In this document: piece by piece, positions 46,114 to 59,406 of the stretch
Layout of the letters: the number at the start of each line of letters is the position of its first letter
Numbering within the stretch: position 1 is the stretch's first letter
Virus record (IMG/VR): IMGVR_UViG_3300042997_002652
Coordinates: 202,968 to 266,967 of that record
Length of the DNA stretch: 64,000 nt
Strand: one strand, 5' to 3'
From: a virus
Taxonomy: Duplodnaviria > Caudoviricetes
The notes under the pieces: generated by a model
The model's database searches: none
What the model saw: only the letters and a program-made list of their open reading frames with translations
Told to the model about the DNA's origin: nothing
Program-made: the position numbers and the translations under genes

Positions 46114-49100
46114 ATGAGTCAACTAATTGATTTAGGAAAATTACGATTTTATTGGGCCGGTACATATAGCTCTGTAACTCAGTATGAATTAAATGACGTA
46201 GTGCGCTACGGCGGTAATGTTTATGTTTATATAAATGTTGTAAAAACTAACGGCAACGAGCCTACTGATCCAGCCTACTGGGCTTTAATGGTAGAAGGTA
46301 TTAACTTTCTTGGTACTTGGAACAGTGCAACACAATATTACATTGGCGATGCAGTTGCATATGGTTCTACTGTATATGTTGCTCTTGATGACAACCTTAA
46401 CAAACAGCCAGATTTGTTCCCGCTTGTTTGGTCTCAATTCGTTGAAGGCATTCAATTTGAGGGGGAATACAGCAGTGTCACAACTTATCAAGCAAATGAC
46501 GTAGTTACTTACGGTCCCTCAACATATATTGCTAAAGGTACTACTAATAATAACTTACCAACAAACGCAACATATTGGGATCCTTTTGTTGAGGGTATTT
46601 CTCCTGAAGGCGTATATAATGGCGCTACAGCTTATGTCCCGGGCAATATTGTAGCATATGGTGCAAATCTTTATGTTGCTATAGCCAACACTACTGGTAA
46701 TATACCAACAAATGCAACTTATTGGACTCTATTTATAGAATCGTTTGATAACAGAGGTGCATGGGCAACCGCAACTCTTTATTATGTAAATGATTTAGTA
46801 CAGTTTGGTGCTAATAGCTATGCATGTGAAATACAAAACACTTCAGGGGTGTTTGCAACTGACTTAGCTGCCGGTAAATGGTCTTTGTTTGTTTCAGGTT
46901 TACGCAATCGCGGCCCCTGGACTACTGCAACATTATATCTTCCTTATGATATTGTTGTATACGGCGGAAATACTTACTCATGCTTAATACAAAATAATTC
47001 AGGAGTGTTTGCAACTGATTTAGCTGCTGGTAAATGGGAAATATTTAACGGCGGTATTCGCTGGAGAAATGAATGGACTTCTGCTACTCCATATTTGACT
47101 AATGATATTGTTCGCAATGTAGGATCATCTTATATTGCTACAGAAGATTTTACTTCTGGAGGTAACTTTAATACTGAATTTGTTGCTGGCAAATGGGAGT
47201 TCTTTGCACAAGGTGCTGATGATGTACTTCCTATCATAGGTGTAGGTGAAGAAGGATATTCTTTAACAGTAAATGCTGATGGTGCCACAATTGACTGGAT
47301 CAATGCTACTGGATCACCTAATGTATTTTATGTTTCTCCGGACGGAAATGATAGTAACCCAGGTACTAGTTTAGCATTACCGTTTGCTAGTATACAAGCT
47401 GCTGTTGCCGCTGTTACTGTTGGACAAATGTCTACAATCTTTGTCAAGACTGGTACATACCAAGAAGCTGCGCTTCCTATTGTTGTACCTCCTAACACTG
47501 CTATTGTAGGTGATAATCAACGTACTGTTATTGTTACTCCAGCAGCTGGTTTAGCTGCTGACGGAGTTACACCAAACAATCAATCCATGATGTGGCAAAT
47601 GTCTAATGCGTCTATATTAAACTGCATGACATTTACTGGTATGACCGGCTGGGTTGCTGGATCTACACCAGCTGACATTACTACTTCTGTTATTAAAGGG
47701 GTGTTTGTTGGATTTAATCCTGCGTCCCCGGTTACTAGTAAGTCACCTTACATTGTAGAATGCTCTGCAATATCCCCCGGCGGTGTTGGTGGTTATGTAG
47801 ACGGATCTGCTCATGCATCCGGTAACAAGTCAATGCTTTTCCATGCATTTACTATTATTAATGATTTGGGTATAGGATATTATGTTAGAAATCAAGGTAA
47901 AGCTGAAATAGTTTCTTGCTTTACATATTTTTGTTATTTTGGATACGCTACATCGGGCGGCGGAATTATACGAGCACTAAATGGTAATAACTCATACGGT
48001 GTTTGGGGTGTCGCTGCTCGCGGGTTTGATACTACTGAAGTACCTCTGTTAGGTGCTCTTTATGGTACACAACTTACTGTTACTACTGACCCTATCACTA
48101 CAGGGTTCACGGCGGGATTAACAGCCACTGGAGTAACATCCGGCGCCACTGCAATTATCACTAATAGACAGGCTAACGCCGCTAAACTTTATATAAAATA
48201 TACAGGTGGATCACCTGTATTTGTGCAAGGAGAAGATATTACTGACGGAACAGGGAATACTCTAACTATTGTTAATAACGCTAGCGGTGTTACTGGTCAA
48301 AAAGGTGTATTACTCGTAATGAACGGTCTAAGTGCTGAACCATTACCGGGAGCAAGTATACAATTAACAGGCGATGCGTTTTCATATGTTATTCAGTCAG
48401 TATCCGGTACTTATGTTAATAGCTCAAGCATTATGATTATAGCATTAGCTCAAGAAAAACCAGATGCGTCTCCAGACGGCACAGTAGTAACAATACGCTA
48501 TAAGTATTCACAGATCCGATTAACAGGACACGACTTTTTAAGCATAGGAACGGGCGGTATAGCTACTACTAACTATCCTAACACTCCACTTCAACCGCCT
48601 GCCCAAGGTCAAGAGGTTGAAGAAATATTCCCGGGTCGTGTTTATTATGTATCTACAGACCAAGACGGTAACTTTAGAGTAGGTGAATACTTTACAGTTG
48701 ATCAGGGTACGGGTACAGCAACACTAAACGCAAATGCGTTCAATTTATCAGGATTAACATCGTTACAACTTGGTTCTATCGGTGCTCAGTTAGGGGAAAC
48801 AATTAATGAGTTTTCTTCTGATGTTACTATGGGCGGCGCCTCCCCAACTAACTTAGCCGTTCCCACTGAGTTTGCGGTTTCAGGTTTCGTGCAAGCAGAA
48901 ATAGCAACACAACAAGCATATGTTGATAACCGAGTTCCGCAAGCTATTCCAACGGCAGTAGGTGAAACTGGTAAGTACCTGCTTAGTAATGGTTCTATTC
49001 CTACATGGTCCGCTCTTAGTTTAAATGAGATTGTTGGAGCCAGTTCAACATTTGCAAGAACGGGTACGGCTGCTACATATAGTTATTCTATTTTTTCAAA

Positions 49101-50460
49101 CACGATTCTAACTCCTGCGACTTGGTCGCTATCTGGCACAGTTCCTTCTGGTATATCAATAAACTCCTCTACTGGTGTACTGACTATAGGTTCATCCGTA
49201 TCAACCGGGTCATACTCGTATACTATTAATGCAGTTGGTGCTGAGAGTACTGGTACTCTCACTGAAACTATTTCAACAGTTGTCAATCCTGCTTATCCAG
49301 TGTTTAGTTCAACTGTTTTGCCTTCAGCAGTTACTCCGTCTTCAGCTTTTACATCTACTGCTACACAAGCAACGGCATCATCCGGTACGGTAGTACATAC
49401 GCTCACTGGAGGAACTCTTCCATCATGGGCGTCACTAAGCTCTGCTGGAGTGCTTTCAGGAACTGCCCCGGCAAGTCCTACAGGATTTGCCGGTCCGTAT
49501 ACCTTTACAGTAACAGCTACTAACGGAATTTATGTTGCTGTTAAGGCCTTTACTTGGACTTATTACTTAGGGTTGATTCAAGGTCAAAACTTATATAACT
49601 CTTCTGGTACTTACTCATGGACAGCACCAACATCAGTTACTTCTGTTTCTGTAGTAGCTATAGGTGGCGGCGGAGCCGGCCAAGACAACTGGGCTAATCC
49701 AGCTGGCGGCGGAGCTGGATTAGGATGGAAAAACAATATTACAGTTGTTCCCGGTACTGCGTACACTGTAGTAGTTGGCGGAAGGGGAATTAGTACTAGT
49801 AGTAGTGGCGCTACACAACTGAAAGGCGGTGACTCTTACTTTATCTCTTTAGCTACTGTTTCAGGATACGGTGGCGGTAACAATTCTGGCTCTGGTAGTT
49901 ATGCTACCGGCCCTAATGTTCGAGGTAATACCGGCGGTGGTTATGTAGGTGACGGAGGCGGACCAGGTGGACAGGCTAACAGTTCCTGGTCAGGTGGCGG
50001 CGGCGCCGGGGGATATTCTGGAAGAGGCGGTGATGTTAATGAGACTTGGAATTACCCTACAGTTCGCGGCGCTTATGGCGGATCCTCTTATAGTTCTACT
50101 TACGGTACTGGCTCAGGCGGAGGAACAGGCGTTCTAGGCGAAACCAGTTATCCTAGTTCAGGTAATGCATTCTACAATCCGTTTACTGGCTACACCAACG
50201 TAAGTAGTTACGGAAGCGGCGGCACGGGCTTTAGTGGTGGCGGTAACGGAATGTATGGTGAAAATCCATTCAGCGGCTCGGGACAAAGTTCAGACAACAT
50301 TCAAGGCGGAGATTACGGTGGTGGCGGTGGCGGTCCGGGCACTAGTTGGCCATCTTCATCTGGAAATGGCGGACTAGGCGCAGTACGTATTATATGGGGA
50401 TCCGGCCGAGCATTCCCTAGTACAAATACCGCAGACGTTACACCTAGCGGCCCGGCTTAA
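46114..50460 (+). CDS. Large multidomain tail fibre/spike (CBM5/12-like repeats, beta-helix, Ig-like domains, Gly-rich tip)
   Basis: Repeated W..AT.Y..(G/N)D.V.YG...Y units; VFYVSPDGNDSNPG..PFASIQAA beta-helix entry; LSGTVPSGISINSSTGVL Ig-like; GTYSWTAPTSVTSVSVVAIGGGG Gly-rich domain; followed by a chaperone gene. Confidence 0.8.
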   Translation: MSQLIDLGKLRFYWAGTYSSVTQYELNDVVRYGGNVYVYINVVKTNGNEPTDPAYWALMVEGINFLGTWNSATQYYIGDAVAYGSTVYVALDDNLNKQPDLFPLVWSQFVEGIQFEGEYSSVTTYQANDVVTYGPSTYIAKGTTNNNLPTNATYWDPFVEGISPEGVYNGATAYVPGNIVAYGANLYVAIANTTGNIPTNATYWTLFIESFDNRGAWATATLYYVNDLVQFGANSYACEIQNTSGVFATDLAAGKWSLFVSGLRNRGPWTTATLYLPYDIVVYGGNTYSCLIQNNSGVFATDLAAGKWEIFNGGIRWRNEWTSATPYLTNDIVRNVGSSYIATEDFTSGGNFNTEFVAGKWEFFAQGADDVLPIIGVGEEGYSLTVNADGATIDWINATGSPNVFYVSPDGNDSNPGTSLALPFASIQAAVAAVTVGQMSTIFVKTGTYQEAALPIVVPPNTAIVGDNQRTVIVTPAAGLAADGVTPNNQSMMWQMSNASILNCMTFTGMTGWVAGSTPADITTSVIKGVFVGFNPASPVTSKSPYIVECSAISPGGVGGYVDGSAHASGNKSMLFHAFTIINDLGIGYYVRNQGKAEIVSCFTYFCYFGYATSGGGIIRALNGNNSYGVWGVAARGFDTTEVPLLGALYGTQLTVTTDPITTGFTAGLTATGVTSGATAIITNRQANAAKLYIKYTGGSPVFVQGEDITDGTGNTLTIVNNASGVTGQKGVLLVMNGLSAEPLPGASIQLTGDAFSYVIQSVSGTYVNSSSIMIIALAQEKPDASPDGTVVTIRYKYSQIRLTGHDFLSIGTGGIATTNYPNTPLQPPAQGQEVEEIFPGRVYYVSTDQDGNFRVGEYFTVDQGTGTATLNANAFNLSGLTSLQLGSIGAQLGETINEFSSDVTMGGASPTNLAVPTEFAVSGFVQAEIATQQAYVDNRVPQAIPTAVGETGKYLLSNGSIPTWSALSLNEIVGASSTFARTGTAATYSYSIFSNTILTPATWSLSGTVPSGISINSSTGVLTIGSSVSTGSYSYTINAVGAESTGTLTETISTVVNPAYPVFSSTVLPSAVTPSSAFTSTATQATASSGTVVHTLTGGTLPSWASLSSAGVLSGTAPASPTGFAGPYTFTVTATNGIYVAVKAFTWTYYLGLIQGQNLYNSSGTYSWTAPTSVTSVSVVAIGGGGAGQDNWANPAGGGAGLGWKNNITVVPGTAYTVVVGGRGISTSSSGATQLKGGDSYFISLATVSGYGGGNNSGSGSYATGPNVRGNTGGGYVGDGGGPGGQANSSWSGGGGAGGYSGRGGDVNETWNYPTVRGAYGGSSYSSTYGTGSGGGTGVLGETSYPSSGNAFYNPFTGYTNVSSYGSGGTGFSGGGNGMYGENPFSGSGQSSDNIQGGDYGGGGGGPGTSWPSSSGNGGLGAVRIIWGSGRAFPSTNTADVTPSGPA

Positions 50461-50474
50461 TTTAGGAGAGTTAA

Positions 50475-50930
50475 ATGTTTTATATTAAATTAGATGAAAA
50501 TAATAATCCAATGAATCATCCAATGTCAGGAGACAATCTCAAAGACGTACTGGAAGTAGCTTATTTGGACGATAATGTTTTAAAAGAATTTGGATATGCA
50601 AAATTTGAACGTTTCAAAGACGCACCAAATGCAGTGACCATTCACACAACTGATTATTACATGGATACAGACGGAGTAGTCAGAAATCGGGCGTCTGTTC
50701 GTGAGTTTACACAAGAAGAGCTTATTGATCAGTTTATTAGAAGGCGCCGCAGTTATTTACTAGCAGCATGTGACTGGACTCTAGCAGTAGATAGTCCTTT
50801 ATCTGCGGAGAAAAAAGAAGAATGGGCAAATTACCGTCAAGCTTTGCGAGACCTTACATCGGTTTATAGCACAGCACAGTCGGACAGTGATGTTATTTGG
50901 CCTACTGAACCAACCAAGGGTAATTCATGA
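50475..50930 (+). CDS. Tail fibre assembly chaperone (Tfa-like)
   Basis: RRRSYLLAACDWT..DSPLS..KKEEWANYRQALRDLT..VIWPTEP is the Tfa C-terminal motif. Confidence 0.85.
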   Translation: MFYIKLDENNNPMNHPMSGDNLKDVLEVAYLDDNVLKEFGYAKFERFKDAPNAVTIHTTDYYMDTDGVVRNRASVREFTQEELIDQFIRRRRSYLLAACDWTLAVDSPLSAEKKEEWANYRQALRDLTSVYSTAQSDSDVIWPTEPTKGNS

Positions 50931-51571
50931 GTACTTTTTTAAGTGGAATTTTTGCAACACCACTACTTATTGGAAATAGTCACGATATTGATATTCGTGA
51001 AAAAATTTGTGCGCTGGCGTTACAGTTTAGAGAGAATGCACACGATGCAAAACTAGTGTCTGAAGGATGGAATTACGGAAGATCATCTTCTTCTCAGGAA
51101 GATTTTAATCAATACGGAGTTACATCTTTTAGTTCACAGTCTCTTTTGGACGATCCTGACTGGAAAGATGTAATGACTTTTTTATATGACTTTGCTAATG
51201 CAATGATCGCCAGTGTAAATAATACAACCGGTGTTATGTCGTTTGTTAATAGCTGGGTTACGATATATCCACCGGGCACGTATATACCAGAGCATATTCA
51301 TTCAAATTCAATGTTGAGTGGAGTGTTTTATGCAAAAGTACCTGAGAAAGCGGGTAACCTTTTATTTAAAGATCCTTCTGCTGTGGCTAAAACTATGTAC
51401 ACTCGTCACTATAATGATTTTCCTACAGTGCCTACTATACACACTCATGTAGTGGAAGAAGGGCAAATGATTATTTTTCCTTCTTGGCTTCCTCATATGA
51501 CTGAGATCAACAAGTCCCAGGATAATCGGATTATGGTAAGTTTTAACATTAATATGATTGATCCTGAGTAA
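50927..51571 (+). CDS. 2OG-Fe(II) oxygenase (TIGR02466-like)
   Basis: HIH..LSGVFY..EGQMIIFPSWLPH..RIMVSFN. Confidence 0.85.
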   Translation: MSTFLSGIFATPLLIGNSHDIDIREKICALALQFRENAHDAKLVSEGWNYGRSSSSQEDFNQYGVTSFSSQSLLDDPDWKDVMTFLYDFANAMIASVNNTTGVMSFVNSWVTIYPPGTYIPEHIHSNSMLSGVFYAKVPEKAGNLLFKDPSAVAKTMYTRHYNDFPTVPTIHTHVVEEGQMIIFPSWLPHMTEINKSQDNRIMVSFNINMIDPE

Positions 51572-51668
51572 TAAAAATTAAATCACGGTTTCATTATTAC
51601 TAAATAAAAAACAATCAACTAGTGTTTGGTTGTTTAACTAAGACGTAACTTTTTACCGGAGATTTTAA

Positions 51669-52214
51669 ATGTTTAACGATGCTTACTGGGCATGGGACGG
51701 TGTATTAGACAAAGCTTTTTGCGAGTATGCACTTAACCGGCTTGACTGGGATAAAGCTGACGAAGCACGAGTACGAGAGACCGGAGTCCCGGCAGATCCT
51801 TCAGTCCGAATCACGCAAGTTTTATGGGAAGAATACACTTCTCCTATTGCAGCAGTTGCTTTTTACTATACTCATCTTGCTAATAAACTAGCAGGTTGGA
51901 AATTTCAAATTGATTACCCTCAACAAGTGCAAATAGGACGGTACGCAAAAGATGGTCACTATGACTGGCATATTGACGCTCAATTACCTGATACTGAGGG
52001 GTTTCAACGTAAGCTAAGTTGTTCTATTCTATTAAATGATGCTTCAGAATACGAAGGAGGAGATTTGGAGATTAGAGGAGTTAAAATAGCACCACCTAAA
52101 ACACGCGGCACAGTTATTGTATTTCCGTCTATACTAGAACATCGTGTTCTTCCAGTGACGGAAGGTGTTAGGTATTCTGCTGTTTGTTGGACTATGGGGC
52201 CTGCTTTTACGTAA
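51669..52214 (+). CDS. 2OG-Fe(II) oxygenase, prolyl-4-hydroxylase-like
   Basis: Y..DGHYDWHID..RKLS..LND..YEGGDL..GTVIVFPS.LEHRV.PVT.GVRYS.V.W. Confidence 0.88.
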   Translation: MFNDAYWAWDGVLDKAFCEYALNRLDWDKADEARVRETGVPADPSVRITQVLWEEYTSPIAAVAFYYTHLANKLAGWKFQIDYPQQVQIGRYAKDGHYDWHIDAQLPDTEGFQRKLSCSILLNDASEYEGGDLEIRGVKIAPPKTRGTVIVFPSILEHRVLPVTEGVRYSAVCWTMGPAFT

Positions 52215-52320
52215 CAGACTCTAGCTATAAGTATTAGGGCACTAGAAAAGAAAGTATCAAACGATATACGAAGATAACTATACGAAAAGAACACTGAAAA
52301 TACATAGAGAAAAATGTAAC

Positions 52321-52860
52321 ATGACGTTAAAAGAACAAACTAAAGATTTACACGAAATAGCAGAAAAAAATCCATTTGCTCAACGACTTCTTTCAGGTAA
52401 TATATCTAACACCGAATATGCATGTTACTTAACTAACCTAGAACCTATTTATAATGCAATTGAAAATTTAGCAGAAAACAGTGGCATACTTATTGATGGC
52501 ATAGTTCATATAAAGAGAACAGAACTAATTCGTGAAGATTTAGCAGAATTAAAGCAACTAGGAGCAAATCATTACGTAATATTTGAATCTACTTGCAGGT
52601 ATGTTGATTATCTTAATCAACTTGATAAAGGTAAGATACTTGCTCACTTATATACCAGACACTTTGGTGATTTATACGGCGGGCAAATTTTAAAAACTAA
52701 AGTTCCGGGTAAGGGAAAAATGTACGAGTTTGTTGAGCGAAAAGCATTGATTGATAAAACACGTATGATGCTTAGCGATGATCTTGGACCCGAAGCACGA
52801 ATAGCATTTCAATATGCGATATATCTTTTTGAGGAACTTACTAATGAGTTTAATATTTGA
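52321..52860 (+). CDS. hemO: Heme oxygenase
   Basis: LKEQTKDLHEIAE (proximal His) and LAHLYTRHFGDLYGGQ (distal helix); adjacent to a bilin reductase. Confidence 0.9.
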   Translation: MTLKEQTKDLHEIAEKNPFAQRLLSGNISNTEYACYLTNLEPIYNAIENLAENSGILIDGIVHIKRTELIREDLAELKQLGANHYVIFESTCRYVDYLNQLDKGKILAHLYTRHFGDLYGGQILKTKVPGKGKMYEFVERKALIDKTRMMLSDDLGPEARIAFQYAIYLFEELTNEFNI

Positions 52861-53512
52861 TAAATTGTTACAACACGCAAGTGAATTTCAAACTATACTA
52901 AATACATTAGACCGATCTGACGAAGTACATGAGTTTCCTTGGGACAATTTGGTTTATACTTCTAAGTATATTAGGCGGGCCCACTTAGACATAGTAGACA
53001 AACGAGAAGATCGTAAATTGCTAATGATGCATTTATGTGTTTTTCCTCATACTGACTCAGATGCACCTATATACGGGTTTGATCTAATTGCGGGTCCTAA
53101 TAAAGTTACAGGAGCATTTCATGACTTTAGTCCTTGTACTAATAACAACTCTTCTCATCCTCTTAGTGAATTATTTGCTGGAGAAGTAAAAAAATATTCA
53201 TGGTCAAAACAGCGTGAACTGCCTGAATGGGCTAAAAAAATATTTAGTCCTTGGATGGTTGCAGCAGGTAATATTAAAGATATTGACGAACTTTCTGAAG
53301 TACTTGAGCTATCTAAAAATAATTTGATTTCATATATTGAATGGATGAAAACTAACTATGCTACAAGTGATCAAGACTATACACAACAACAAAACAATTA
53401 TTGTATTAATCAAAAGCAAAATCCGCATACTCCTCGTGTAATGGAAAGTTTAGGTTATGATCCAGATACTGTCCAAAAGTTTATACAAAATTGCCTTTTT
53501 CCGGAAGTTTAA
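52844..53512 (+). CDS. pcyX: Ferredoxin-dependent bilin reductase, PcyX-type
   Basis: RRAHLD..LLMMHLCVFP..PIYGFD..GAFHDFSP and NPHTPRVM..LG. With the start at 52844 (GAGGA RBS), D49/M61/H63/D80 have the spacing I recall for PcyX Asp55/Met67/His69/Asp86, with Asp where PcyA has Glu76. Confidence 0.8.
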   Translation: MSLIFDKLLQHASEFQTILNTLDRSDEVHEFPWDNLVYTSKYIRRAHLDIVDKREDRKLLMMHLCVFPHTDSDAPIYGFDLIAGPNKVTGAFHDFSPCTNNNSSHPLSELFAGEVKKYSWSKQRELPEWAKKIFSPWMVAAGNIKDIDELSEVLELSKNNLISYIEWMKTNYATSDQDYTQQQNNYCINQKQNPHTPRVMESLGYDPDTVQKFIQNCLFPEV

Positions 53513-56328: not shown

Positions 56329-56338
56329 GGATTATTAA

Positions 56339-56542
56339 ATGAAACAGAAAATTTTAAAAGCACTAGAAGCACATTTTGTAGGACATATTGAAAAGCATAA
56401 AATGAATATAGAGATTATGTTAGCTAATCCTTTAGCTATTCACGATCACACTGATCTTATGAGTGCTATTGAAAAAGAAATTCAACAATTAGTAGAATAT
56501 CAAGACAAACTTGACGCACTTAAACAACATTTCGGGGATTGA
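56339..56542 (+). CDS. Hypothetical protein
   Basis: 67-aa helical ORF filling the nrdA-nrdB gap, with AAGGA RBS. Confidence 0.65.
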   Translation: MKQKILKALEAHFVGHIEKHKMNIEIMLANPLAIHDHTDLMSAIEKEIQQLVEYQDKLDALKQHFGD

Positions 56543-56545
56543 TAA

Positions 56546-57646
56546 ATGTCAAAACAACAGTATAACTTAGAAACAAAAACAGATTACTTGTCAAGAAAGA
56601 TGTTTTTAGATCCCGCAGGTCCGGTAACTATTCAAAGATTTGAAGAATTTAAGTATCCCAAAATTGCCAAGCTGGAAGAAACTGCTAGAGGCTTCTTTTG
56701 GATCCCCGAAGAAGTTTCACTAACGAAAGATGCACAAGATTTCAAAGATGCCAGTGACGCGGTCAAACATATTTTTACTAGCAATGTTTTAAGACAAACT
56801 GCACTTGATAGTTTACAAGGCAGAGGACCCAGTCAAATCTTTACTCCTGTTATTTCACTACCTGAACTAGAAGCATTAGTTTACAATTGGACTTTTTTTG
56901 AGACAAATATTCATAGCAGAAGTTATAGTCATATTATTCGTAATATTTACAATGTACCAAAAGACGTTTTTAACACTATTCATGACACGCAAGAAATTAT
57001 TGATATGGCGTCAAGCGTAGGTCAATACTATGACAAGCTACATGTGCTTAACTGTAAAAAAGAGCTAGGTCACAAGATTGACGAAAAAGAACATATCAAA
57101 GCTATTTGGATGGCACTAAACGCCAGCTATGCATTAGAAGCATTTAGATTTATGGTATCTTTTGCTACTTCATTAGCAATGGTTGAGAACAAGATTTTTA
57201 TTGGTAATGGAAACATTATTAGCTTGATCTTACAAGATGAAATTTTACACAAAGATTGGACTGCTTATATCATTAACCAAGTAGTAAAAGAAGATCCAAG
57301 ATTTGCTCAAGCTAAACAAGAATGCGAACAAGAAGTTTATGCTCTTTATATGGATGTGATCAGAGAAGAAAAAGCATGGGCGGATTACTTGTTTAAGAAA
57401 GGCCCGGTTATTGGCCTCAATGCTAATATTTTAAAAGAGTTCGTAGATTATACTGCTATGAATGCGTTAAAAGAAATAGGTATTAAGTATCAGTCTAGTG
57501 CTCCTAAGTCTACTCCAATTCCTTGGTTTAATAAGCACTCGTCAACAAGTAACAAACAAACTGCACTACAAGAAAACGAAAGCACAAACTATGTTATAGG
57601 AATTATGTCTAATGACGTAAACTATGATGAATTACCCGATTTATAA
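56546..57646 (+). CDS. nrdB: Class Ia ribonucleotide reductase beta subunit
   Basis: FFWIPEEV, LDSLQ, ETNIHSRSY, EAFRFMVSF, QDEILH iron/tyrosyl motifs. Confidence 0.96.
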   Translation: MSKQQYNLETKTDYLSRKMFLDPAGPVTIQRFEEFKYPKIAKLEETARGFFWIPEEVSLTKDAQDFKDASDAVKHIFTSNVLRQTALDSLQGRGPSQIFTPVISLPELEALVYNWTFFETNIHSRSYSHIIRNIYNVPKDVFNTIHDTQEIIDMASSVGQYYDKLHVLNCKKELGHKIDEKEHIKAIWMALNASYALEAFRFMVSFATSLAMVENKIFIGNGNIISLILQDEILHKDWTAYIINQVVKEDPRFAQAKQECEQEVYALYMDVIREEKAWADYLFKKGPVIGLNANILKEFVDYTAMNALKEIGIKYQSSAPKSTPIPWFNKHSSTSNKQTALQENESTNYVIGIMSNDVNYDELPDL

Positions 57647-57658
57647 AAGGAAAATATA

Positions 57659-58588
57659 ATGAATAAAATGTTAGTTATGTTAGGCATCACGGCAGTATTA
57701 GTAGCCTGTCAGCCAAACTCGTTAGAACAAAGTACTGGTCCAAAAACTGAAACACCCACATTTGACTTAGATTACAGTCAGAGTTGCACTGATAAAGGTG
57801 AACCCACTATTAGTGGTAACTCTGTATTTTTTGGATCAGGAGATCAATGTCAAGCAGGTAGAGTAGTATCTACGCAAAGTTATGCTAATATTACTGAATT
57901 TAGAGCCACTGTGGATTTGAGCAATCTGACAAATGATTATGTAAATGCGTCTGTATACTTTATACAAAATCCAAACGATCCACAAACACAGCCTAAAGCA
58001 ACCGCAGATCATACTGGATCATATTGTGACGCTGGTACAGGTGCCGATTCGCATCCTGAACGAAATTGCAGAGAAATTGATCTTATGGAAACAAACGGCA
58101 ACAAGTTGTTTCAAACAACATTGCATTTAGGCAATGGTGGAAGTTCAGCTCCTGAGCGTTTTGAATATGCATATGCAGCGCCTGCGTTAACTGATTCTAA
58201 CTTTAATGCTGCAAATATGAAGAATAGTCCTACAGTAGGATTACATGATATTACTAGTATTGATATGTCTAAGCCATTTGATATTATTGCAACTTTTACA
58301 TATGATATACCTAGAATGGTTATGACCTATGAACAAGGTTCTATTAGTATCGTAGTATATGATACCGGTGATGGCTATGGCGCTAATGGCAGTCAAACAC
58401 CTGATCTGTCTGATTTAGTTACTACTATGCAAAACGGTTACTGGATTGAGATTTCGTTTTGGCAAGGGTACAGTCCAGAAGGCCCTGGTAATAGTCCATG
58501 GTGGAATGGTTCTGATGGCTGGGGTGCATTGTGTAATAACACTGGCTCATACTGGAACATACGCAATATCCAAGTAACAACACTATAA
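57659..58588 (+). CDS. Lipoprotein with clan GH-B glycoside hydrolase fold and GH7-type motifs
   Basis: Lipobox LVA-C17; TVDLSNL..VNASVYF, YCDA, catalytic EIDLME (E139/D141/E144), QTTLH, IDMSKPFDII..F, MQNG..I.ISFW, IRNIQ. Confidence 0.7.
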   Translation: MNKMLVMLGITAVLVACQPNSLEQSTGPKTETPTFDLDYSQSCTDKGEPTISGNSVFFGSGDQCQAGRVVSTQSYANITEFRATVDLSNLTNDYVNASVYFIQNPNDPQTQPKATADHTGSYCDAGTGADSHPERNCREIDLMETNGNKLFQTTLHLGNGGSSAPERFEYAYAAPALTDSNFNAANMKNSPTVGLHDITSIDMSKPFDIIATFTYDIPRMVMTYEQGSISIVVYDTGDGYGANGSQTPDLSDLVTTMQNGYWIEISFWQGYSPEGPGNSPWWNGSDGWGALCNNTGSYWNIRNIQVTTL

Positions 58589-58619
58589 ATACAAGTATCA
58601 CACTTAACCGGAGATTTAA

Positions 58620-59168
58620 ATGAAAAAACAACTTATGATTTTATTTTTAATATTTTTTAGCGTAACTGCACAAGCCGCTAGATACGAAGTATGTACAGGA
58701 CAATTTGCGTTCTGCGGAGCTTCAGGTGCTACCCCGACAGGAAAAACTATTACAGTAAATACACCTACTGGTACGGCTGAGTTTAATGAAGCTGTAGCTC
58801 AATGTCCAGTAATGACCGGATCTGCTGTTGCAGATGTACTCGGTGGTAATATGCAGGGTTCATGCGAACCTTTAGAATCAGGACATGTATGGTCTTTGTT
58901 TGCCCCGCTCGGTCAAGTTCCCATGGCCCCTACTTGGAGTGTACAAACAGCTACTCCAAGATTATACATTAGTAGCAAAGAAGCAAATAGCAGTAATATG
59001 TTTTCAATGGATTGTGTTTTAGGTAAAGTAATCAATGGAGTTCAGATTGCCGATTGTTATGGTCCTATCAATGAAAATCTTAGAGGCGGGTCTATTCCTG
59101 ACGGTACTACTATGTTAACTGAAGCTCCTCTCGATGTGACATTCCCGGTATCTGGCCCGTTGCCTTAA
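58620..59168 (+). CDS. Secreted cysteine-containing hypothetical protein
   Basis: Signal peptide MKKQLMILFLIFFSVTAQA-A, six Cys, GGAG RBS, TATAAATA upstream. Confidence 0.7.
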   Translation: MKKQLMILFLIFFSVTAQAARYEVCTGQFAFCGASGATPTGKTITVNTPTGTAEFNEAVAQCPVMTGSAVADVLGGNMQGSCEPLESGHVWSLFAPLGQVPMAPTWSVQTATPRLYISSKEANSSNMFSMDCVLGKVINGVQIADCYGPINENLRGGSIPDGTTMLTEAPLDVTFPVSGPLP

Positions 59169-59178
59169 GGATATCATA

Positions 59179-59406
59179 ATGCAAAAAGCAATTATATGGA
59201 GTAAGTCAAACTGTAGTTATTGCGATCAAGCAAAGCAGTTACTAACCATGAAGGGAATAGTATTTGAAGAAAGAAAGATAGGTGCTGAATGGACTAAAGA
59301 ACAACTGTTAGAAGCAGTTCCTACAGCAAGAGCAGTCCCACAGATTTTTCTAGACGATCAATATGTGGGCGGATTTACTGAACTAAGACAAAAACTTAAC
59401 AACTAA
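59179..59406 (+). CDS. Glutaredoxin (RNR reductant)
   Basis: CSYC active site; AVPQIF and VGGF motifs. Confidence 0.92.
   Translation: MQKAIIWSKSNCSYCDQAKQLLTMKGIVFEERKIGAEWTKEQLLEAVPTARAVPQIFLDDQYVGGFTELRQKLNN

Follow-up and report, generated by a model that had tools for sequence, protein, structure and literature searches.

A predicted minimal GH7-type glycanase lipoprotein in an accessory cassette of a T4-like jumbo phage

The gene behind nrdB and its predicted exported product

The window considered here is a 64-kb stretch of DNA that makes up the last part of a 267-kb viral record (IMG/VR IMGVR_UViG_3300042997_002652; CheckV completeness estimate, 76%), and close behind its nrdB gene lies the subject of this analysis, an open reading frame (ORF) for a protein of 309 amino acids (aa). 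A first-pass annotation, made from the letters alone, had described this product as a phage lipoprotein with the signature motifs of glycoside hydrolase family 7 (GH7), the textbook eukaryote-only cellulase family and the chief constituent of industrial cellulase mixtures. Our analysis leads us to place it in the GH7 lineage as a divergent and minimal form. Most likely it is an exported endo-beta-glycanase of the retaining type, encoded in an accessory cassette; to this reading we give a probability of roughly 0.6.

The ORF and its LVAC lipobox are present as first described, in what proves to be the record of a T4-like jumbo phage (Table 1; residue numbers throughout are those of the 309-aa protein). 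The N-terminus, MNK-MLVMLGITAVLVA-C17, has the positive n-region and hydrophobic h-region of a signal peptidase II substrate, with a lipobox of the form [LVI][ASTVI][GAS]C inside the first ~35 residues, and the Pfam lipoprotein model LPAM_1 gives a weak match (E 0.2). An export signal starts nearly all of the full-length family members; about two-thirds of the full-length homologues have L-[AST]-[AG]-C at the equivalent place (residues 13-17), and most of the others have an ordinary signal peptide. The GH7-like protein would be a Sec-exported lipoprotein, lipidated at Cys17.

Table 1. Features of the GH7-like gene, its product and the surrounding cassette (positions in the window)
Position	Strand	Feature	Basis
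57647..57651	+	AAGGA, Shine-Dalgarno-like, 7 nt ahead of the ATG	sequence reading
57659..58588	+	whole ORF, 309 aa + stop: exported minimal GH7-type glycanase (predicted)	ORF call, homologues, GH7 comparison
57659..57709	+	signal peptide and lipobox, residues 1-17; LVAC at 14-17; Cys17, predicted lipidated residue; +2 residue Gln	
57710..57754	+	low-complexity tether, residues 18-32, poorly conserved	family alignment; its start has low model confidence
57755..58585	+	clan GH-B beta-jelly-roll catalytic domain (predicted), residues 33-309	AlphaFold2 model, VIA-align, Foldseek
57908..57961	+	TVDLSNL (84-90) ... VNASVYF (95-101), counterpart of GH7 VDVS..(LP)C..NGALY	profile alignments
58022..58033	+	YCDA, residues 122-125, counterpart of GH7 YCDAQ	alignments
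58067..58090	+	CREIDLME, residues 137-144, catalytic strand; Glu139 nucleophile, Asp141 helper, Glu144 acid/base (predicted)	GH7 homology
58115..58126	+	TTLH, residues 153-156; His156 pairs with the conserved GH7 His past the catalytic strand	
58259..58297	+	IDMSKPFDIIATF, residues 201-213, counterpart of GH7 VDTSKPFTVVTQF	profile alignments
58427..58462	+	MQNGYWIEISFW, residues 257-268, counterpart of GH7 GMVLVMSLW	profile alignments
57664..59211	+	1.55-kb cassette: GH7-like gene and 182-aa secreted ORF; about 25 nt in its place in the closest relative	blastn
58584..58591	+	T4 late-promoter consensus TATAAATA, overlapping the GH7-like stop codon, 29 nt upstream of the 182-aa ORF	
58620..59168	+	182-aa secreted Cys-rich ORF, 6 invariant Cys in 5 homologues	

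The series of GH7-like motifs that had been read along the protein was recovered in full (those of Table 1, together with IRNIQ at residues 301-305). The likeness to GH7 goes well past what chance would give, and HMMER alignments pair the same motifs of the family with their GH7 counterparts: VDLS/VDMS, NAA-Y, YCDA, C-E-D--E, H, SKPF-VV and SLW. The strand with the ExDxxE motif aligns with that of the GH7 endoglucanases 8POF and Cel7B, and the flanking GH7 motifs (NGALY, YCDAQC, the post-strand His, SKPFTVV and SLW) are all aligned and conserved save for one Gln-to-Gly replacement, to which we return. YCD and C-x-E-x-D-x-x-E occur in every full-length member. In an alignment of 40 sequences, whose columns average 22% identity, eleven residues are invariant, namely Tyr122, Cys123, Asp124, Cys137, Glu139, Asp141, Glu144, Gln152 (immediately ahead of TTLH), His156, Gly260 and Pro273; Trp268 is conserved in at least 90% of these sequences, as are D86, N96 and Y100, which are invariant in a smaller alignment of 24.

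Cys123 and Cys137 are found in all 78 of the family sequences inspected for cysteines, and a second pair (window residues 181 and 286) co-varies, with both present in 68 of the 78, neither in 8 and one alone in 1. This cysteine pattern resembles that of an oxidised, exported protein. The window copy has Asn at 181 (58202-58204) and Asp at 286 (58514-58516) and has probably lost one disulfide. A comparison of 14 phage copies puts dN/dS at about 0.08 for the GH7-like gene and at about 0.07 for the adjacent nrdB, both values being rough because dS is near saturation. The conserved residues and the selection, taken together, are likely to reflect an active enzyme, under purifying selection where it is present.

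Comparison with GH7 and GH16

Single-sequence searches of Pfam, PHROG and NCBIfam with the protein gave no GH7 or GH16 match at E<=1 (the Pfam GH16 models PF00722, PF26113 (XgeA) and PF03935 (SKN1) included), Pfam was equally silent on 24 other family members, and a single-sequence phmmer search of the PDB produced nothing useful. A profile of 24 family sequences matched one PDB sequence, 8POF (E=6e-8), which is RsSymEG1, a smaller GH7 endoglucanase from a termite-gut protist symbiont. With a profile of 40 sequences, which takes in the most distant members, an hmmsearch of the PDB sequences returned 8POF at E=4e-15 and 11 further GH7 sequences at E 2.8e-6 to 2e-3; the best GH16 sequences were non-significant (E 0.11-0.15). 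In a large protein database the family profile also matched P0124 (E=1e-18), a metagenomic protein whose gene neighbours P4-type flippase genes on a contig of eukaryotic type. This protein passes the threshold of the Pfam GH7 model PF00840 (64.6 bits vs 27), and its relatives are all PF00840-annotated, including one from Prymnesium parvum listed in UniRef as cellulose 1,4-beta-cellobiosidase. Profile-profile alignment with hhalign scored the family at 99.4% against P0124 and at 99.8% (E=2.4e-28) against 19 PF00840-annotated haptophyte-type GH7s, over 200 columns that reach the C-terminus.

The structural evidence points the same way. An AlphaFold2 model, computed from the family sequences alone and without templates, has a mean pLDDT of 86.9 and a pTM of 0.86, with residues 1-14 and 20-23 below a pLDDT of 50. 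The first-pass annotation had suggested placing such a model by Foldseek, and the 43 best PDB matches are all GH7. VIA-align, which is independent of Foldseek, gave a Z of 18.2 with 8POF (rmsd 3.2 A over 236 residues, 21% identity, model residues 28-309), of 16.6 with Cel7B and of 16.1 with a Cel7 cellobiohydrolase, the identities to GH7 spanning 16-21%. GH16 structures fell below all three of these representatives (Z 12-14.7 over 175-210 residues, 7-14% identity), the shared clan fold being expected for either family. In the ESM Atlas, a search by features found the family's own three viral clusters nearest and then a 355-aa haptophyte GH7 as the closest named cluster, and a search by structure gave a TM of 0.64-0.65 for GH7 clusters and at most 0.55 for GH16 clusters. 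Among the viral structures of BFVD there were just weak GH16-like or unnamed matches (TM <=0.45).

The explanation to be set against a GH7 ancestry is that the protein is a GH16-type enzyme of the beta-bulge ExDxxE laminarinase/agarase kind, whose GH7 motifs are convergent. GH16 (bacterial laminarinases, lichenases and agarases; plant XTH) does share with the family the jelly roll, a size of 200-300 aa and the type of catalytic motif; it is common in bacteria and occurs also in some phages and giant viruses, as the BFVD matches illustrate. Its structures do align with the model, and hhalign finds a faint resemblance to 12 clean GH16 domains from Gammaproteobacteria and one planctomycete (33%, E=4.6e-4, non-significant). 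This resemblance covers 70 columns round the catalytic strand, whereas the alignments with GH7 extend over 200-245 residues and take in the C-terminal half; the YCD, SKPF and C-terminal Trp motifs are absent from GH16; and the Pfam searches, the PDB profile values and the sequence identities given above all separate the two families in the same direction. A GH16 identity is thus largely refuted and strikes us as extremely improbable. The preference for GH7 in the first-pass annotation, which a better match to a bacterial GH16 would have undone, is borne out by profile, profile-profile and fold comparisons alike. Its suggestion of a missing link between GH16 and GH7 gains no more than a faint hint of support: the family lies clearly on the GH7 side, and its GH16 signal is barely above that of the haptophyte GH7s themselves (6.5% over 22 columns, non-significant).

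Comparison with characterised relatives helps to place the family more exactly. RsSymEG1, its best profile match and best structural match, is similarly small (321 vs 309 aa) and has VD-S, NAA-Y, YCDA, C-E-D--E, H, SKPF-VV and SLW in common with it. It differs in being a eukaryotic secreted digestive enzyme rather than a phage or bacterial lipoprotein, and identity is about 21%; the phage family has Gly for the Gln of YCDAQ and its own C-terminal W-Q-G-Y-S-P...W-W-N...C...C signature. RsSymEG1 is an active carboxymethylcellulase (605 U/mg; Todaka 2010 as cited in PMC4885837). The haptophyte-type GH7s (the Prymnesium parvum AB1Y20_015220 group and P0124) are alike enough for the hhalign alignment to include a C-terminal W...W-L-D-G-G-C...C; they differ from the family in length (376-678 aa), in their long Pro-rich C-terminal extensions, in being eukaryotic and recognised by Pfam, and in having no lipobox. 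On these alignments they form a bridge from the phage family to canonical GH7. The canonical fungal and animal enzymes (Cel7A, Cel7B/EG I) share the fold, the ExDxxE strand and significant or nearly significant profile matches (2.8e-6 to 2e-3), but have catalytic domains of about 370-450 aa with tunnel or cleft loops, many more disulfides and often a CBM1. The family therefore looks like a divergent branch of the GH7 lineage, farther from canonical GH7 than are the small protist and haptophyte forms.

That the protein is a minimal form, as had been supposed, agrees with its size beside the 321-aa RsSymEG1 and with a comparison over a 189-position core, in which Cel7B has about 30 and the cellobiohydrolase about 80 residues more than the phage protein. 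This small size fits a loss or absence of the tunnel loops, and from the missing loop residues we would expect an open cleft.

An optional cassette and a patchily distributed family

The phage itself is a T4-like jumbo phage. Among the T4-type genes of the window are those for a late sigma factor (gp55-like), SbcCD (gp46/47-like), a portal protein, a major head protein (gp23-like), a lysozyme-bearing baseplate hub, and tail fibres together with their chaperone. With the jumbo myoviruses of Proteobacteria the capsid protein shares 64-67% identity, the matches being Vibrio phage 2.275.O, Pseudomonas PA5oct and its relatives, Sinorhizobium phage Phosso and jumbo phages of E. coli. IMG/VR labels the record (our G000) a provirus; judged by its genes it is a lytic jumbo phage of T4-like type, and the label seems to be an artefact of classification. 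At 50927-53512 (+) lie genes for two 2OG-Fe(II) oxygenases, a heme oxygenase and a ferredoxin-dependent bilin reductase; the capsid of this phage is nearer to those of Proteobacteria jumbo phages than to those of cyanophages.

The nrdB stop codon ends at 57646, which leaves a gap of 12 nt before the GH7-like ORF. No terminator-like site was seen between the two, the terminator and sigma-70 scans being rated uninformative; given the 12-nt gap and the lack of such a site, the gene is likely to be co-transcribed with nrdB. In IMG/VR, 74 viral contigs carry a family member, several of them 158-525 kb long, and contigs of 344 and 359 kb bear copies as well; in about 55 of the 74 loci the gene lies inside an nrdA-nrdB-grx cluster, as either nrdB-X-grx or nrdA-X-nrdB. 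These loci were, of course, found through the GH7-like protein itself. We therefore regard as rejected the idea that this is a core gene of the lineage: its fixed position was an artefact of protein-based fetching. An independent set of 80 loci (L085-L164), fetched by nrdB alone from at least 598 matching contigs and with NrdB 83-98% identical, includes 69 with a complete nrdA-nrdB-grx interval, and none of the 69 has the GH7-like gene. The nrdA-nrdB and nrdB-grx gaps of these relatives range from 0 to 4143 nt, so that various cargo genes must fill them; in the window the insertion hot spots are 56329-56545 and 57647-59178. The closest relative, L085, with flanks 92-97% identical in DNA to the window by blastn, lacks the whole cassette. 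Only a minority of the T4-like jumbo lineage carries the gene, which is an optional insert at a hot spot.

The second gene of the cassette, the 182-aa secreted ORF, has no family match in Pfam, PHROG or NCBIfam, and its AlphaFold2 model is poor (pLDDT 59). It follows the GH7-like gene directly in two further loci (L025 and L062) and in a third outside the nrd context (L071), and it occurs without the GH7-like gene in L120. Its product could be a partner or an inhibitor of the GH7-like enzyme. The late-promoter consensus TATAAATA upstream of it may be there by chance, since the window has 6 copies of this motif against 11 expected and so shows no enrichment.

More widely, the family is small, as an exhaustive search of 1.8 billion representatives yielded just 45 homologues; the word-indexed search, over 5.8 billion proteins, brought up 77. 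None of the homologues has a precomputed Pfam domain, and the public copies that bear a descriptive name are all called 'hypothetical protein'. A tblastn search of 50,697 deposited phage genomes found no family match. The first-pass annotation would have been weakened by abundant, already classified bacterial homologues; among prokaryotes, sampled as one genome per species, there are 5 carriers in 185,579 genomes, four Halieaceae metagenome-assembled genomes (MAGs) and one Planctomycetes MAG. In a broader survey of the Halieaceae, 4 of 201 genomes carry a family member, one of them a fragment, and the genes around the Halieaceae copies are ordinary chromosomal ones (uvrB, purEK, LysR regulators). 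Another copy belongs to a giant virus (L083:5662-6756, in the Nucleocytoviricota MAG GVMAG-S-ERX556045-73), where it adjoins a type IA topoisomerase gene, and a cluster of marine-eukaryote transcriptome sequences (proteins P0111 and P0147-P0158) includes the labyrinthulomycete Mucochytrium quahogii. With these last two finds the family spans phages, a giant virus, bacteria and eukaryotes. A metagenomic protein of 5241 aa, P0118, has six weak stretches resembling the family (E 3e-5, 26% identity); its best region has Calycin-like and other beta-sandwich Pfam matches and no C-x-E-x-D-x-x-E, and P0118 is probably no more than a remote repeat protein of jelly-roll type.

A tree of the family, rooted on the eukaryotic sequences, contains an 18-member phage clade (SH-aLRT 100) with the window copy as its earliest and longest branch; the Halieaceae copies fall among the phage clades with poorly resolved branching, and the eukaryotic sequences form very long branches near the root. 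Because the deep nodes lack resolution and there are long-branch joins, we claim neither a donor nor a direction of transfer. One could imagine, instead of a stray copy of a eukaryotic cellulase, a cross-domain 'mini-GH7' family (jumbo phages, at least one giant virus, a few bacteria, labyrinthulomycetes and haptophyte-type forms), spread by viruses and placed near the root of GH7, of which the eukaryotic GH7 cellulases are loop-elaborated descendants with viruses as the vehicle; we think this unlikely.

Possible role and rival explanations

By homology with GH7, Glu139 would be the nucleophile that attacks the anomeric carbon and Glu144 the general acid/base, with Asp141 positioning the nucleophile; the -1 and -2 subsites would be lined by Tyr122-Cys123-Asp124, Gln152, His156 and Trp268, and Cys123 and Cys137 probably pair to stiffen the catalytic strand. 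Once exported by Sec and lipidated on Cys17, the enzyme would be tethered in the envelope of a Gram-negative host, where the Gln at +2 would probably sort it to the outer membrane, and co-transcription with the nrd genes would bring its expression well before lysis. There it might cleave a beta-linked glycan of the host surface or periplasm, most likely of the beta-1,4-glucan type, and so destroy a receptor or barrier, with the result that superinfection is blocked and progeny are freed from debris or matrix. Such a role, the cleavage of a host surface or periplasmic beta-glycan giving superinfection exclusion and freer progeny, can be put forward only tentatively, at somewhat less than even odds. 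It would suit a dispensable envelope lipoprotein, presumably expressed early, whose distribution is patchy. T5 Llp is likewise an accessory, exported gene product of host interaction, unrelated in fold and family. A soil-virus chitosanase (PMC9485262) resembles the phage gene in being accessory, located in a variable region and exported rather than built into the virion, again with an unrelated fold and family.

A rather different possibility is that the gene is an auxiliary metabolic one, its exported glycanase digesting environmental beta-glucans (algal or plant cellulose, mixed-linkage glucan, laminarin-like polymers) on the infected cell's surface and thereby feeding the host with carbon and energy during a long jumbo-phage infection. 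The bacterial homologues are secreted proteins or lipoproteins of free-living heterotrophs (Halieaceae, Planctomycetes), some homologues have weak, borderline dockerin-like matches or the FG-GAP/VCBS domains typical of extracellular enzymes, and one member is expressed by a labyrinthulomycete, an osmotrophic decomposer; other host-derived metabolic genes (ribonucleotide reductase, heme oxygenase, bilin reductase) lie nearby in the phage, and there is a precedent in a soil-virus glycoside hydrolase shown to be functional (PMC9485262). Against it, no transporter or sugar-catabolism gene lies alongside in the phage or bacterial loci, a lone endo-enzyme would release oligosaccharides, of use only to a host already equipped to take them up, and any gain within a single infection cycle is doubtful. 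We consider this explanation unlikely, and improbable the proposal that the protein is a transglycosylase (in the manner of GH16 XTH/Crh) or a non-hydrolytic glycan-binding lipoprotein, which would remodel or mask an envelope glycan. For this last proposal one can cite the natural transglycosylases among the retaining clan GH-B enzymes, the departure of the substrate-site residues from canonical GH7 (the Gln-to-Gly change in YCDAQ) and the early phage lipoproteins that mask receptors, T5 Llp for example. Yet the catalytic triad and its neighbours are invariant in phage, bacterial, giant-virus and eukaryotic members, which would be needless for mere binding, and the nearest characterised relative, RsSymEG1, is a hydrolase.

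Several observations weigh against the view of this protein as an exported GH7-lineage endo-beta-glycanase acting on host glycans. The Pfam GH7 model PF00840 recognises no member of the family (none at E<=1 for the window protein and 24 members), and 20 further distant members were without a PF00840 or PF00722 match at E<=0.1, none of them bridging. A PF00840 scan of the Halioglobus genome (G001) that carries a family member found nothing; a scan of 401 Gammaproteobacteria likewise gave no match, a weak negative since the control genomes gave none either. As the Pfam model misses the whole family, the latter may be a new sister family in clan GH-B instead of a part of GH7 proper. The residue that replaces the Gln of YCDAQ, Gly126, moreover never varies among the 24 aligned sequences and is kept in at least 90% of the 40. 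The rule that the +2 residue governs lipoprotein sorting is an E. coli rule and may not hold in the host of this phage. The gene must be dispensable, as the closest relative does without it, and no carbohydrate-related partner gene was seen in the neighbourhoods outside the nrd cluster or in bacteria. Finally, single CBM5/12-like repeats occur in giant fibre-like proteins (5894-6463 aa) of three other carrier phages, each of them sub-threshold in Pfam and lacking a control set.

As for the novelty of the family, GH7 was long thought to be fungal and was then found in other eukaryotes, prokaryotes using other families (PMC7571853). In the literature searched we found no bacterial, other prokaryotic or viral GH7, the lipoprotein-anchored type included. 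Small protist GH7s and haptophyte GH7s are already known, and what appears to be new is a minimal, lipoprotein-type, virus-borne branch of the lineage. A conserved GH7-type lineage, evidently functional to judge by its sequence, in phages and a few bacteria and invisible to Pfam and NCBIfam, would extend the range of GH7 to the viruses of prokaryotes. Its domain, of about 275 residues, ranks with the smallest natural GH7-type scaffolds encountered in this work and could serve to test the GH7 core without its loops, and the sequence set lends itself to testing the divergence of GH7 and GH16. For jumbo phages the gene is a candidate accessory enzyme directed at the envelope or its glycans, and its presence or absence between near-identical phages could be exploited experimentally.

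Elsewhere in the window, a 1448-aa fibre-like protein (46114-50460, +) contains about five tandem CBM5/12-like repeats, of the chitin/cellulose-binding type (40 bits in total), besides a He_PIG Ig domain and a glycine-rich domain, and is followed by a Phage_tail_APC chaperone (50475-50930, +). As a lead only, the repeats hint at a glycan receptor.

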